Source: Chthoniobacterales bacterium (GTDB lineage: Bacteria > Verrucomicrobiota > Verrucomicrobiia > Chthoniobacterales > UBA10450). Taken from it: a DNA stretch of 12,842 bases. Shown in pieces: positions 8,010 to 12,842 of the stretch. Each line of letters starts with the position of its first letter. Positions within the stretch are counted from its first letter, which is position 1. The notes beneath the pieces are model-generated. The model searched no databases and was not told the origin of the DNA. It was given only the letters and a program-made list of their open reading frames with translations. The stretch covers positions 16,061 through 28,902 of the forward strand of contig QHBM01000070.1 of the NCBI GenBank assembly GCA_003244145.1, written 5' to 3'. Made by a program: the position numbers and the translations under genes.

Positions 8010-9332
<1,323 letters not shown>

Positions 9333-9333
<1 letters not shown>

Positions 9334-9680
9334 TGGATCATCCGGGCTATGGGGATTTTCGCGCGCGACGTGAGGCCACGGTTTGGCAGCGTCTCAACAG
9401 CGTTCTGCGCGTGTTGCTCGTCGTCGCGACTCTGCTCGTGATCGTGAGTCTGTTCGTGCCGCCCTATAAAAAACTGACGCAGAGCCGCAGTGAAATCGAG
9501 AACCTGCAAGCGCAGGTGAACGATCAGAAAATGTTACTCGCCCGCGCGACGCGCGAAGTGACCGTGCTGAAAACCGACGCAAGTTATCTGGAAACGATGG
9601 CGCGCGATCGTCTTGATTTGATGAAGGAAGGCGAAACGATCTTTCGCCTGGAGCCTCCGTCCGCGCCGAAGCGGAAATAA
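9333..9680 (+). CDS. ftsB: Septum formation initiator family protein (FtsB/DivIC-like)
   Basis: 115-aa ORF with a single TM helix (VLRVLLVVATLLVIVSLFV) followed by a coiled coil (IENLQAQVNDQKMLLARATREV) and the family-typical YLETMARDRLDLMKEGETIF. The GTG start overlaps the eno stop by 1 nt (TAGTG). eno-ftsB adjacency is a common arrangement. Confidence 0.75.
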
Positions 9681-9861: not shown

Positions 9862-9933
9862 ATGAGCTTTAAAACCAAATTCACCCTCGCCGCAGTTCTC
9901 TTCCTCGTGGTCGCGTTCAACCGCGCGGAAGCA
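9862..9933 (+). other. Sec signal peptide of the repeat protein
   Basis: MSFKTKFTLAAVLFLVVAFNRAEA|QL has a basic n-region, a hydrophobic core and an AxA cleavage motif. Confidence 0.75.
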
Positions 9934-12045
9934 CAATTAAGTTACGACGTCACCGATCTGGGAACGCTAGGTGGAACGACGAGCACCGCCAGCACCGCAG
10001 GGCAACAAAACGCCAACGCCGCGGGCATGATCGTGGGGTCGTCGACGACGAGCGATAACACTGAACATGCCTTCCTCTACACCAACGGGCAGATGTTCGA
10101 CCTGAACACGCTCTGCGATTTAGCGTCGAGCAACTTCAAGGTGCTGACGTTGGCAAGAGCCATCAACGATGACTGCGTCATTGTCGGCGACGGCATCACG
10201 GTGAACGGCGAAAAGCATGCCTTCTTGATGAGGCCCGCGGTCGTTGATGGCGGCCGGTGGTCTTATCGGTGCTGTCAGTGGGTTTGGATCCAGGAAGGCG
10301 GCGGCTGGTGGTGGGAAAACGATTGTCATTGTTACAAGTGGCACGGACCTCCGGGAAACCATCCGCCGTGTCCGCCGCAACCGCCGCATTGTTGGTGGTG
10401 GCCGCTGCCATGTCCACCCGACTGCGGCTGCGAGCCGCCGCCACCGCCGCCTAACTATTACTATTGTTGCATCAGGGGCCACATCGTCCTGGTCACGGCG
10501 GATGAATGCGCGGCCAAGGGCGGGCAACGCTTCGATTCGCTGGAAGAAGCGCGCAAGAATTGCAGGCCTTACTGGTACTGCCTTGATAAGAAAGTTATCC
10601 AGACAACCTGGACTGACTGCCAGGCGAAAGGACTCCAATGTTACGACTCGCCCGGAGAAGCGAAGAAAAATTGCGACACCAAGATTTGCTGGACTTGCGT
10701 CGATGGAAGGGTCGTGAAAACGACCGAAGCAGAAGCGGGTTCGAAGGGTTGGCGATGCTTCCCGACGGAAGAAGAAGCGCTCCGGAACTGTATCCCGAGA
10801 GAGTGCTGGTACTGTGTCGACGGCAAAGTGAAAAAGGGAACCGAGGCAGAAGCCAGCGCCCTCGGGCTCAAATGCTATCCGACAGCGGAAGAAGCGCGCC
10901 GGAATTGTGAGAAGTTGTGTTGGTGCTGCTTCCAGGGACCTAACGGAAAAGAACTGGTTCAACTGACGGAAGCGGAGTGCAAGGCGCGGGGCGGCCAGTG
11001 TTACAGTTCGGTGGAAGAAGCCCGCCGGCGCGGTTGCGCACCGAAGCTTTGCTGGGTCTGCATCGACGGAAAGGCTGTCCAGGTCCCCGAGACGGAAGCG
11101 GCAGCAAAAGGTCGCAAATGCTATCCTACGAAAGAAGCCGCGCTGCGGGATTGCCGGCAAACATGGTGGTGCTGCATCAACGGACAAATTGTCCGGGCGA
11201 CAGAGGAAGAATGCCGGGCCAAGGGCGGGAGATTGTTCCGCACTGAAGAAGAAGCGCGGAGAGAGTGCAGCGGCAGACCTTGCTGGGTTTGCATCGATGG
11301 CAAAGTTATCCAGCTCACCGAGGCCGAGGCGCGGGCGAGAAACGTGCAATGTTACCGCTCCGAGGAAGAAGCACGGCGGAATTGCGAGAAAAAGACCTGT
11401 TGGATTTGTAAAGACGGACAGGTCGTCCAGGTCACCCAAGCCGAGGCGGCAGGAGCCAAGTGTTACAGCACCAGAGAAGAAGCGCTCCGGAATTGCAAGC
11501 AAAGGACCTGTTGGATCTGTCGAGACGGACAGGCGGTGCAGGTGACTGAGGCGGAGGCGGCAGGAGCCAAGTGTTATGGTTCCCGAGAAGAAGCGCTCAG
11601 GAATTGCGGCGGCGACAAACGTTGCTGGGTTTGCATCGACGGAAGGGTCACTCAGCTAACTGAGGCCCAGGCCAAGGGGAGAGGTCTCCAGTGCTATGGT
11701 TCTCAAGGAGAAGCCGCCGCGGCCTGCAAACCGAAAACGAGTTGTTGGGTTTGTGTGGGTGGACGCGTAACCCAGCTTACCGAAGCACAGGCCAAAGCGC
11801 GCGGCGCGCAGTGCTACAGCTCAAGGGAAGAAGCGCAACGGAATTGCCAGCAGGAAACGAAATGCTGGACGTGCATAGACGGCCAGGTGCTTCAACTAAC
11901 CGAGGCACAGGCGAAGGCCAGAGGTGGCCAGTGCTATGGTTCGAGAGCAGAAGCAGCGAGGGTTTGTGGTGGACAAAAGCCGACACCGAGGCCGACACCG
12001 AGGTTCACGCCGAGGCCCACGCCGACGCCACCAATCATTCGGTAG
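9862..12045 (+). CDS. Secreted 727-aa modular Cys/Trp-rich repeat protein. It contains a signal peptide, two HAF repeats, a W/C/P-rich segment, 13 four-Cys modules and a PT-rich tail. Function is unknown.
   Basis: It is the longest ORF in the window and is preceded by a 181-nt intergenic region. The internal periodicity is at protein level. Individual parts are listed as separate features. Confidence 0.85.
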   Translation: MSFKTKFTLAAVLFLVVAFNRAEAQLSYDVTDLGTLGGTTSTASTAGQQNANAAGMIVGSSTTSDNTEHAFLYTNGQMFDLNTLCDLASSNFKVLTLARAINDDCVIVGDGITVNGEKHAFLMRPAVVDGGRWSYRCCQWVWIQEGGGWWWENDCHCYKWHGPPGNHPPCPPQPPHCWWWPLPCPPDCGCEPPPPPPNYYYCCIRGHIVLVTADECAAKGGQRFDSLEEARKNCRPYWYCLDKKVIQTTWTDCQAKGLQCYDSPGEAKKNCDTKICWTCVDGRVVKTTEAEAGSKGWRCFPTEEEALRNCIPRECWYCVDGKVKKGTEAEASALGLKCYPTAEEARRNCEKLCWCCFQGPNGKELVQLTEAECKARGGQCYSSVEEARRRGCAPKLCWVCIDGKAVQVPETEAAAKGRKCYPTKEAALRDCRQTWWCCINGQIVRATEEECRAKGGRLFRTEEEARRECSGRPCWVCIDGKVIQLTEAEARARNVQCYRSEEEARRNCEKKTCWICKDGQVVQVTQAEAAGAKCYSTREEALRNCKQRTCWICRDGQAVQVTEAEAAGAKCYGSREEALRNCGGDKRCWVCIDGRVTQLTEAQAKGRGLQCYGSQGEAAAACKPKTSCWVCVGGRVTQLTEAQAKARGAQCYSSREEAQRNCQQETKCWTCIDGQVLQLTEAQAKARGGQCYGSRAEAARVCGGQKPTPRPTPRFTPRPTPTPPIIR
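9940..10236 (+). other. Two HAF-family extracellular repeats
   Basis: The first is DVTDLGTLGG...AAGMIVGSS...EHAFLYTNGQMFDLNTL and the second ...AINDDCVIVGDG...GEKHAFLMRP. Both fit the 'probable extracellular repeat, HAF family' pattern (DLGTLGG ... G-x-[IV]VG ... HAF[LI][YW]). Confidence 0.65.
10255..10464 (+). other. Trp/Cys/Pro-rich low-complexity segment
   Basis: Residues 132-201 read RWSYRCCQWVWIQEGGGWWWENDCHCYKWHGPPGNHPPCPPQPPHCWWWPLPCPPDCGCEPPPPPPNYYY. Ten Trp fall within about 48 residues, including two WWW triplets, and there are nine Cys. Confidence 0.9.
10465..11967 (+). repeat. Thirteen tandem protein-level repeats (period about 111-132 nt, or 37-44 aa) of a four-cysteine module
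   Basis: Module starts are at nt 10465, 10570, 10687, 10804, 10918, 11050, 11164, 11281, 11398, 11509, 11623, 11743 and 11863. The consensus is CWxC[IV]DGxVxQ[LV]TEA[EQ]AxAxGxxCYxSxEEAxRNC. Confidence 0.9.
11977..12042 (+). other. Pro/Thr/Arg-rich C-terminal tail
   Basis: The tail is KPTPRPTPRFTPRPTPTPPIIR, a reiterated TPRP-like unit. No hydrophobic anchor follows it. Confidence 0.85.
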
Positions 12046-12112: not shown

Positions 12113-12842
12113 ATGGCCAGTGAAGTGTCGGTGATCGAATCAGAAGCACTCCAGTCGCGCGTGCGCGAATTGCGGAGGTTTCTTTGACGTCCCGAAACTG
12201 GAAGGACAACTAAACGCGCTGGAAGAGCGCATGTCTGCGGCCGATTTCTGGTCGAACCGCGAGCGAGCGCAGGGGGACGTCGAAGAAGTCTCGCGCATCC
12301 GTTCGTTGCTGAATCCGCTGCGCGAACTGGAACGCGCGGTTGCGGATTTCGAAGCACTCCGCCAGCTTGCGGCGGAAGAAACCGATCCCGCTCATCGCGC
12401 GGAAGCGGAAAAAGAGCTCGCGAGCGAACAGGGCCCGCTGCTCCACCGGCTCGAGGAATTCGAGCTGCGCCAATTTCTTTCCGGCGAAAACGATCGGTCG
12501 AACGCGTTCTTGACCATCCACTCCGGCGCGGGCGGAACGGAATCGTGCGACTGGGCGGACATGCTGTTGCGGATGTATCAGCGCTGGATCGAACGAAGCG
12601 GTTTCACTTCGCAAACGATCGACGTGCAAGTCGGCGAAGAAGTGGGCATCAAATCGACGACGCTGCTGGTGCAGGGCGAATACGCTTACGGCTATCTCAG
12701 TGCGGAACGCGGCGTCCACCGGCTCGTGCGCATTTCTCCCTTCGATGCGAACAAGCGCCGGCACACCTCCTTCGCGAGCGTGGACGTCGTCCCCGAGATC
12801 GCGGATTCGGCGCCGATCGATATCAACCCGGCCGACATCGAG
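12113..12842 (+). CDS. prfB: Peptide chain release factor 2, requiring a programmed +1 frameshift: join(12113..12184,12186..12842). The 3' end lies outside the window.
   Basis: Frame 0 encodes MASEVSVIESEALQSRVRELRRFL and then TGA at 12185-12187. The +1 frame continues DVPKLEGQLNALEERMSAADFWSNRERAQ ... FLTIHSGAGGTESCDWADMLLRMYQRW ... GIKSTTLLVQGEYAYGYLSAERGVHRLVRISPFDANKRRHTSFASVDVVPE. That stretch includes the RF2-specific SPF tripeptide (12735-12743). The gene is absent from the ORF track because part 2 has no start and no stop inside the window. Confidence 0.92.
12174..12188 (+). promoter_or_regulatory. RF2 autoregulatory +1 frameshift site
   Basis: GGAGG TTT CTT TGA C consists of an internal SD-like element, a 3-nt spacer, the slippery CUU and UGA followed by C. 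E. coli prfB has the same layout (AGGGGG UAU CUU UGA C). Confidence 0.88.

Follow-up and report, generated by a model that had tools for sequence, protein, structure and literature searches.

The window analysed here, a stretch of 12,842 nucleotides from a Chthoniobacterales bacterium (contig QHBM01000070.1, positions 16,061 to 28,902), carries on its forward strand an open reading frame (ORF) at 9862-12045 for a protein of 727 amino acids that is read as secreted and contains 65 Cys in all. From the N-terminus, its product consists of a putative signal peptide, HAF repeats and a junction rich in Trp, Cys and Pro, followed by 13 modules in tandem and a tail rich in Pro and Thr. These modules are the subject of this analysis. 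Their cysteines differ in position from one module to the next while remaining even in number, and in the wider family they vary in couples, a pattern that points to intramodule disulfide bonds.

Splitting of the translated array gives 13 modules of 33-40 residues (about 35) that span residues 200-702 and start at residues 200, 237, 276, 315, 353, 397, 435, 474, 513, 550, 588, 628 and 668. Positions within a module are numbered on a 35-column consensus, CWCCIDGxVVQxTEAxCRxRGGQCYxSxEEAxRxC, in which the Cys sites are C1, C3, C4, C17 (the helix Cys), C24 (the Cys of CY) and C35 (the C-terminal Cys). Modules of type A have Cys at 1, 4, 24 and 35, those of type B at 3, 4, 17 and 35, those of type D at 4, 17, 24 and 35, and those of type S, or six-Cys modules, at all six sites. 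The features of the ORF are as follows.

9862-12045 (+), whole ORF, HAF-repeat/Cys-module protein, 727 amino acids
9862-9933 (+), putative signal peptide, residues 1-24, MSFKTKFTLAAVLFLVVAFNRAEA and then QLSY, read from the sequence, with a presumed cleavage site
9937-10260 (+), N-terminal beta-rich domain, two HAF repeats, residues 26-133 (NCBIfam TIGR02913 and AlphaFold2, AF2)
10261-10458 (+), Trp/Cys/Pro-rich junction and polyproline linker, residues 134-199, 9 Cys
10459-10563 (+), module 1, residues 200-234, type B: YYCC..ADEC..QRF..NC
10570-10674 (+), module 2, residues 237-271, type D: YWYC..TDC..QCY..NC
10687-10791 (+), module 3, residues 276-310, type A
10804-10908 (+), module 4, residues 315-349, type A
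10918-11037 (+), module 5, residues 353-392, six Cys (1, 3, 4, 17, 24 and C-terminus), PNGK inserted into the turn of the hairpin
11050-11154 (+), module 6, residues 397-431, type A
11164-11268 (+), module 7, residues 435-469, type B: WWCC..EEEC..RLF..EC
11281-11967 (+), modules 8-13, all type A, residues 474-508, 513-545, 550-582, 588-622, 628-662 and 668-702
11968-12042 (+), basic Pro/Thr-rich C-terminal tail, residues 703-727, ending PTPTPPIIR

The order of types along the array is B-D-A-A-S-A-B-A-A-A-A-A-A, with type A accounting for 9 of the 13 modules (3, 4, 6 and 8-13). The Cys counts are 4, 4, 4, 4, 6, 4, 4, 4, 4, 4, 4, 4 and 4, none of them odd, and both C4 and C35 are present in every module. 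Modules 9 and 10 have 33 residues each owing to a two-residue deletion. The first-pass annotation of this DNA, made for 10465-11280, that is, for modules 1-7 between the first Cys codon (residue 202) and the final codon (residue 473) of the linker that leads to module 8, had set out the Cys patterns of the nine type A modules, of modules 1 and 7, of module 2 and of module 5, and had claimed that each module has four or six Cys with an invariant pair of C4 and the C-terminal Cys. The translation agrees with it on every pattern, and the counts and the invariant pair hold for all 13 modules of the array, which runs on past 11280 to 11967.

When the four variable columns of the window's own modules are permuted independently, the chance of even counts is P = 4.9e-4 for 13 of 13 modules and P = 0.015 for 7 of 7 in modules 1-7. 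Tandem Repeats Finder (TRF) locates a DNA tandem repeat with a period of 111 nucleotides (2.3 copies, 80% matches) at 11350-11608, which, judged by its sequence, marks a recent duplication over modules 8/9-10. Since modules 8-13 are recent duplicates, the window by itself is weak, suggestive evidence, and the data from the family are decisive.

Parity and coupling of cysteines across the family

A word-index protein search with the repeat region gave 46 homologues, whose N-termini are HAF-like or FecR-like. In this close family, 212 of the 216 modules have 2, 4 or 6 Cys; the other four are two modules with 5 Cys and a C1 displaced into the linker (CRWCC), one low-quality sequence with 3 Cys and one mis-parsed module. 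When a profile built from 94 non-redundant modules (A1) was run against 1.84 billion representatives, 331 representative proteins matched at E<=1e-3. The scored set comprises 828 near-complete modules from 193 proteins and includes modules without C4 or C35. Counts are even in 801 of the 828 (96.7%), compared with a mean of 51% and a maximum of 57% over 2000 shuffles in which the six Cys columns were permuted independently. The combinations found are listed below; C1 and C3 together without their partners occur in none of the 828 modules.

Type B, Cys 3, 4, 17 and 35: 443 modules
Six-Cys, all six sites: 177 modules
Type A, Cys 1, 4, 24 and 35: 116 modules
Type F, Cys 3, 4, 24 and 35: 18 modules
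Type D, Cys 4, 17, 24 and 35: 9 modules
Type E, Cys 1, 4, 17 and 35: 4 modules
Two Cys, 3 and 17 only: 9 modules
Two Cys, 4 and 35 only: 8 modules

The coupling between sites is strongly pairwise. In the set made non-redundant at 70% identity, C1 goes with C24 (phi 0.91, odds ratio about 630) and C3 with C17 (phi 0.87, odds ratio about 460), and all associations across these pairs are near zero or negative. For C4 with C35 phi is 0.57, a value limited by the rarity of losing either. C4 is present in 98% and the C-terminal Cys in 96% of the modules, and the two are lost together in about 10, leaving C3 and the helix Cys; C1, C3, C17 and C24 are each dispensable in the wide family. The two-Cys modules keep either C3 with C17 or C4 with C35, which independently supports the same pairing. 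The module thus shows both an even count and the paired conservation and loss of Cys that characterise small disulfide-rich extracellular repeat domains.

Several claims of the first-pass annotation can be judged against these figures. It had looked to covariation among homologous modules, and the excess of even counts and the pairwise coupling are as intramodule disulfides predict. The C4 and C-terminal pair, which it took to be fixed, is near-fixed across the family. Its statement that counts are never odd stands for the window and fails for the family, in which about 3% of modules are odd; it had held that homologues with odd counts would speak against the rule, and at 27 of 828 these are too marginal to overturn it. 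The single second bond that it envisaged, drawn from C1 or C3 and from C24 or the helix Cys, has to be replaced by two distinct pairs that coexist in the 177 six-Cys modules, re-routing being needed only for types D, F and E. Finally, modules 1 and 7 had been described as losing C1 and C24 and gaining C3 and the helix Cys. This polarity is probably reversed: type B is the commonest state in the family and the C1-C24 pair a clade-specific addition, so that, from the sequences, modules 1 and 7 have probably kept the old C3-C17 pair and did not acquire it anew.

Even counts could in principle be a by-product of descent, through duplication or conversion of whole modules, with parity itself under no constraint. 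The recent origin of modules 8-13 is of this kind, the number of modules varies from 10 to 13 between orthologues and many of the type F modules are mutually orthologous. The parity nevertheless survives the removal of relatives: clustering at 70% identity over the non-Cys columns leaves 557 modules, of which 537 are even, and the proportion is 96-97% at 90%, 70% and 50% (96% at each of the last two). We also counted changes by Fitch parsimony on an unweighted pair group tree (UPGMA) built from the 29 non-Cys columns, a noisy tree from which the counts are rough. Changes on the same branch number 37 for C1 with C24, 11 for C3 with C17 and 5 for C4 with C35, that is, dozens of separate joint changes, and 64% of the branches with a change have an even number of sites affected, against 20% in shuffles. 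Despite the noise in the tree, a pattern of this kind cannot be attributed to two or three inherited events.

Switches in place are seen directly when modules at the same array position are compared between homologues (designated by L and P numbers). The window protein and L001-L003 have the prefix B-D-A-A-S-A in common, while L004 and P0009 start A-S-A-A. Module 1 retains its own signature, I[KR]GhIvL.., across its switches, being of type B in the window and L001-L003, six-Cys in P0010 and of type A in both L004 and P0009. Module 2 is of type D (YWYC) in the window and L001-L003 and six-Cys (CWCC) in L004 and P0009, with TTW.DC...QCYD[ST]P.EAK retained across the switch. The six-Cys state of module 5 is kept in L001-L003. 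For module 7 the closest relative is at residue 278 of P0004 (86% identity over the non-Cys columns), and no type B module is found at the corresponding point of the array in L001-L003. Elsewhere in P0004, the module at residue 400 (WWIC..AGAKRY..), which corresponds to window module 10 (CWIC..AGAKCY..), has lost C1 as well as C24, and the first modules of P0016 and P0018 differ by exactly C3 and C17. With these positional orthologues and the clustered parity in hand, an origin of the even counts by descent alone seems to us scarcely credible.

Types F, E and D might also have arisen as chimeras of types A and B by recombination within a module. A comparison half by half led us to reject this: F modules are A-like in both halves (identity of the N-terminal part 0.8 to type A and 0.6-0.7 to type B), and the likeness of D modules is to six-Cys modules deprived of C1 and C3. 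This result also tells against even counts as a mere by-product of descent. From their sequences, the changes leading to these cross types look like substitutions in place, type F appearing as if a half-cystine had moved from position 1 to 3.

Predicted fold and a proposed disulfide model

For a single module, AF2 run with alignment A1 gives a predicted local distance difference test score (pLDDT) of 96 and the DSSP assignment -EEEE--EEEE--HHHHHH-----E--HHHHHHH-, that is, a beta-hairpin, a short helix, a strand of one to three residues and a second helix. The full-length model has a mean pLDDT of 75.7 and a predicted template modelling score (pTM) of 0.33. Its modules lie mostly at pLDDT 80-90, and the hairpin-helix-strand-helix topology is predicted for all 13 whatever their Cys type; the score is lower in module 5 (54-69) around the insertion, and no helix 1 is predicted in modules 9 and 10, which carry the two-residue deletion. 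The confident model of one module on its own and the well-predicted modules of the whole chain are what is expected of an independent folding unit, and the low pTM combined with good local confidence fits an arrangement of beads on a string. Most plausibly, the array would form a stable stalk or spacer of this kind attached to the HAF domain.

In the model, positions 1 and 3 (i, i+2 in strand 1) would share one face, with W2 and C4 facing the opposite way. Position 25 is predicted to bridge to strand 1, which would put C24 beside the C1/C3 face; C17 would have to pack on the face of C3, and C35 on the opposite face for C4. The location of the four variable Cys on one face would account for the possibility of alternative pairings and for the fact that C1 and C3 are not used alone.

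On this basis we consider it probable that the coupled cysteines are disulfide-bonded, with one near-fixed bond, C4-C35, and two separate optional bonds, C3-C17 and C1-C24; the exact connectivity, and the re-routed bonds of the rare types, we infer. The module would then be an extracellular mini-domain of about 35 residues held by up to three intramodule disulfides in three separable slots. Slot I, nearly invariant, would tie C4 of strand 1 to C35, with which helix 2 ends. Slot II would link C3 to Cys 17 in helix 1 and be the commonest state in the wider family, and slot III, an addition seen among the window protein's close relatives and in a smaller part of the family at large, would link C1 to Cys 24, which precedes a conserved Tyr/Phe. 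Slots I and II together would give type B (modules 1 and 7), slots I and III type A (nine modules) and all three module 5. An unpaired thiol among disulfide-rich modules in an oxidising compartment would invite mispairing; we propose that for this reason odd states are purged and Cys are gained or lost two at a time. With C1 and C3 on one face of strand 1, and the helix Cys and C24 both reaching that face, a cluster of four Cys would be formed in which rarer pairings could arise: helix Cys with C24 in module 2, and C3 with C24 or C1 with the helix Cys in homologues.

The metal sites of zinc ribbons and rubredoxins have to be considered here, as the CxxC of type A followed by two further Cys bears a superficial likeness to a Cys4 zinc site, and the cysteines might ligate a metal (as CxxC..C..C, or in an Fe-S or Cu site) in place of forming disulfides. 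The ligand set is not fixed, however: modules with two, four and six Cys at differing positions have one fold, so that the invariant four ligands of a Cys4 zinc ribbon or rubredoxin-like site are not found, and the coupling is strictly pairwise, not four-way. In addition, the AF2 model has residues 2-5 in a beta-strand, which would place C1 and C4 of C1-W-x-C4 on opposite faces and leave no knuckle turn for a CxxC. Taken with the signal peptide and the extracellular partner domains described below, this makes metal ligation very improbable.

The cross types D, F and E are a separate matter, being the only ones that call for re-routing (31 of the 828 modules). We lean, by a small margin of confidence, towards true intramodule re-routing in them. 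The standard pairs could be bonded as above and the leftover Cys of the cross types be free, be bonded between modules or chains, or serve in other binding. The small number of such modules would allow this, and the odd modules and odd N-terminal region of these proteins suggest that unpaired or intermodule Cys are tolerated somewhere in them. On the other hand, the cross types always retain two leftover Cys and never one, and they are conserved in orthologues, type D in the window and L001-L003 and type F in at least 11 FecR-type proteins. The pair that is geometrically unlikely, C1 and C3 on one strand, never occurs alone, while the helix Cys with C24 does. F modules, moreover, are A-like throughout with the half-cystine at position 3, as expected if C24 keeps a partner on the same face. 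We therefore regard leftover Cys outside intramodule bonds as unlikely, and re-routed bonds as the slightly better account of the cross types.

A number of observations weigh against the model of intramodule pairs as a whole. By automated count, 27 of the 828 modules (about 3%) are odd; some of these come from frameshift-truncated metagenomic sequences (P0006, P0011 and P0013), and modules with 3 Cys that lack the C-terminal Cys exist among them. A 5-Cys variant, GWCC..F[PSF]C..EC, with an extra Cys at position 12, is recurrent, being found in all four modules of P0164 (residues 41-204), in P0086 (343-377) and in P0173 (78-112 and 226-260). The Cys count of the region N-terminal to the modules is conserved as odd, with 11 in the window protein (9 in the junction, C85 and C105). 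The re-routed pairings come from few lineages, about 5 for type D and 1-2 each for types F and E, and the events were counted on a noisy tree resting on only 29 columns. The extra Cys of the P0164 modules could pair between modules. With 11 Cys in the N-terminal region and 65 in the protein, not all Cys can be in intrachain pairs, and one must be free or bonded to another chain. Of 22 HAF-type homologues, 21 have an odd count (7, 9 or 11) in the junction (10267-10458, residues 136-199, RCCQWVWIQEGGGWWWENDCHCYKWHGPPGNHPPCPPQPPHCWWWPLPCPPDCGC).

Some further variants were noted. The module of P0173 at residue 78 has, besides the Cys at position 12, another at position 5 (GWCCC), making 6 in total. 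Modules with GWCL (in P0165, P0119, P0170, P0106, P0168 and P0153; for example, P0165 residues 185-219) are without C4 and C35 and have only C3 and the helix Cys. They usually stand at the end of the array, and a module with 3 Cys (C3, C4 and the helix Cys) is sometimes found at the other end. Compensation is also seen in the junction, where DCHC..PPC in some proteins corresponds to GCCC..PP[FA] in others and the count stays at 9.

A bolder reading, which we entertain only tentatively, is that of a 'disulfide switchboard', in which four Cys on one face of the hairpin would allow at least five wirings (1-24, 3-17, both, 3-24, 1-17 and 17-24) of the same fold. It would be a fold without a solved relative, with several wirings side by side in one polypeptide. 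If true, this would provide a compact natural series for the migration of disulfide frameworks and a scaffold for the design of stapled mini-proteins. The family holds copies of this very small fold by the hundred, both paralogous and orthologous, and among them almost all even combinations of the three proposed slots are represented.

Family identity, genomic context and known repeats

No model in Pfam or NCBIfam was found to cover the module, either in the window protein or in the 22 other members of the family that were scanned, the match to CV_2116_dom being below threshold (24 bits, cutoff 58), and literature searches found no description of the repeat. Profiles A1 and A3, compared with solved structures, gave only a 13-residue hairpin of cytochrome b5 reductase (E 0.16) and noise. 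Foldseek with the single module against the PDB had as its best match a Kazal-like inhibitor (E 4.4, TM 0.45), which is not significant, and with the full-length model it returned only insignificant matches to beta-propeller blades. From these comparisons, the module is an undescribed bacterial domain family of at least 331 representative proteins, without a counterpart in Pfam, NCBIfam or PDB, and it deserves an annotation model of its own.

Two Pfam models exceed their cutoffs on the array, in each case only through summed weak matches to the repeats (in the window protein and in P0015, P0005 and P0003). For Cyt-b5 (PF00173), the window protein has a summed 43 bits against a gathering threshold (GA) of 23.7. 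The likeness is between EEARRxC-xxx-CWxCIDGKVxQVT of the modules and the N-terminus of cytochrome b5, EEVxKHN..d.CWvvIxGkVYDVt (PDB 3lf5 has CWICIRGFVYNVS). We reject a cytochrome b5-like domain, as only profile positions 1-26 of 74 are matched and no stretch passes alone. Heme binding of this kind is rejected too, the module consensus having no HPGG motif and no conserved His. The JGI name of P0015, 'cytochrome b involved in lipid metabolism', is thus a false annotation derived from the repeat. The score for the Meg family (PF24153), 29 bits, lies above the cutoff of 27 but comes from positions 44-80 of 88 only; we take this to be a match of Cys spacing and composition. Meg is a small secreted plant-type peptide, whereas here the match is to a repeat array in a bacterial protein of 727 residues.

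The N-terminal domain is, by contrast with these, bona fide HAF. NCBIfam TIGR02913 (HAF_rpt) matches the window protein with 63.1 bits (cutoff 22.65) in two stretches, and AF2 predicts strands over residues 26-133 with a pLDDT of about 76-89; the HAF model excludes the Cys modules. In other proteins the Cys modules also follow FecR-like N-terminal domains (PF04773) or are combined with LGFP, CARDB, Big_7, CBM96, Peptidase_C25, PKD, PPC and FG-GAP. The presence of a signal peptide is suggested by the hydrophobic segment that precedes AEA-Q, by a helix at residues 4-19 in the AF2 model and by comparable N-termini in homologues. Export would accordingly be indicated by signal peptide and architecture alike, and the signal peptide together with the extracellular partner domains fits an extracellular, oxidising location. 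The C-terminal tail PTPTPPIIR may be a sorting or anchoring signal; without a transmembrane helix it is not PEP-CTERM-like. HAF-type and FecR-type homologues repeatedly have PTPTPxx[IV]IR or ..PTP..R as their very last residues.

The gene lies among housekeeping genes, with enolase (8050-9333) and an FtsB-like gene (9333-9680) upstream and prfB downstream. The order eno-ftsB-Cys-module gene-prfB is conserved in metagenome-assembled genomes of Chthoniobacterales, Verrucomicrobiota and Spartobacteria (L001, L002, L003 and L005), in which enolase is about 92% identical and the Cys-module protein 55-70%, with 10-13 modules. By these sequence comparisons, the Cys-module gene is a fast-evolving gene of variable copy number in housekeeping surroundings.

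Two other features of the window were noted. prfB (12113-12842, +) has the classic programmed +1 frameshift: the frame-0 ORF, MASEV..RRFL, ends at the TGA at 12185-12187, within the slippery CTT TGA C at 12182-12188 and just after a Shine-Dalgarno-like GGAGG at 12174-12178, and the +1 frame, release factor 2, stays open as far as the window reaches. An ORF of 460 residues (10120-11502, -) runs antisense to the array and is most likely an artefact of GC-rich repetitive coding sequence.

Tandem modules of 30-40 residues that fold by themselves as beads on a string, with intradomain disulfides and an even number of Cys, are familiar from secreted cysteine-rich repeat proteins (SCREPs) and from the class A modules of the low-density lipoprotein (LDL) receptor and epidermal growth factor (EGF) modules. 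These belong to animal proteins, and each family has a fixed Cys framework. The module described here differs in being bacterial, from Verrucomicrobiota and other metagenomic lineages. The paired conservation of half-cystines, and shifts of framework within one fold, are established principles. Our analysis reveals no new biological mechanism; the principle was already known, and what is new is the object, a bacterial mini-domain that is widespread but unannotated and whose natural series of proposed disulfide states is unusually complete, with several such states present in a single protein.

The closest parallel is with the thrombospondin type 1 repeats (TSRs), small extracellular domains with three disulfides that fall into groups 1 and 2 (Tan et al. 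2002, PMC2173040). Between the groups, one half-cystine is on a different strand while its partner is fixed, and some members are without the third bond (PMC2173040). The logic is the same as that which would relate module type A to types F and D. The TSRs are eukaryotic, however, with a three-stranded fold of layered Trp and Arg residues, and have no sequence similarity to the bacterial module. In contrast to the TSRs, the module described here varies from one neighbour to the next along a single bacterial protein, and at least five pairing states would be involved.

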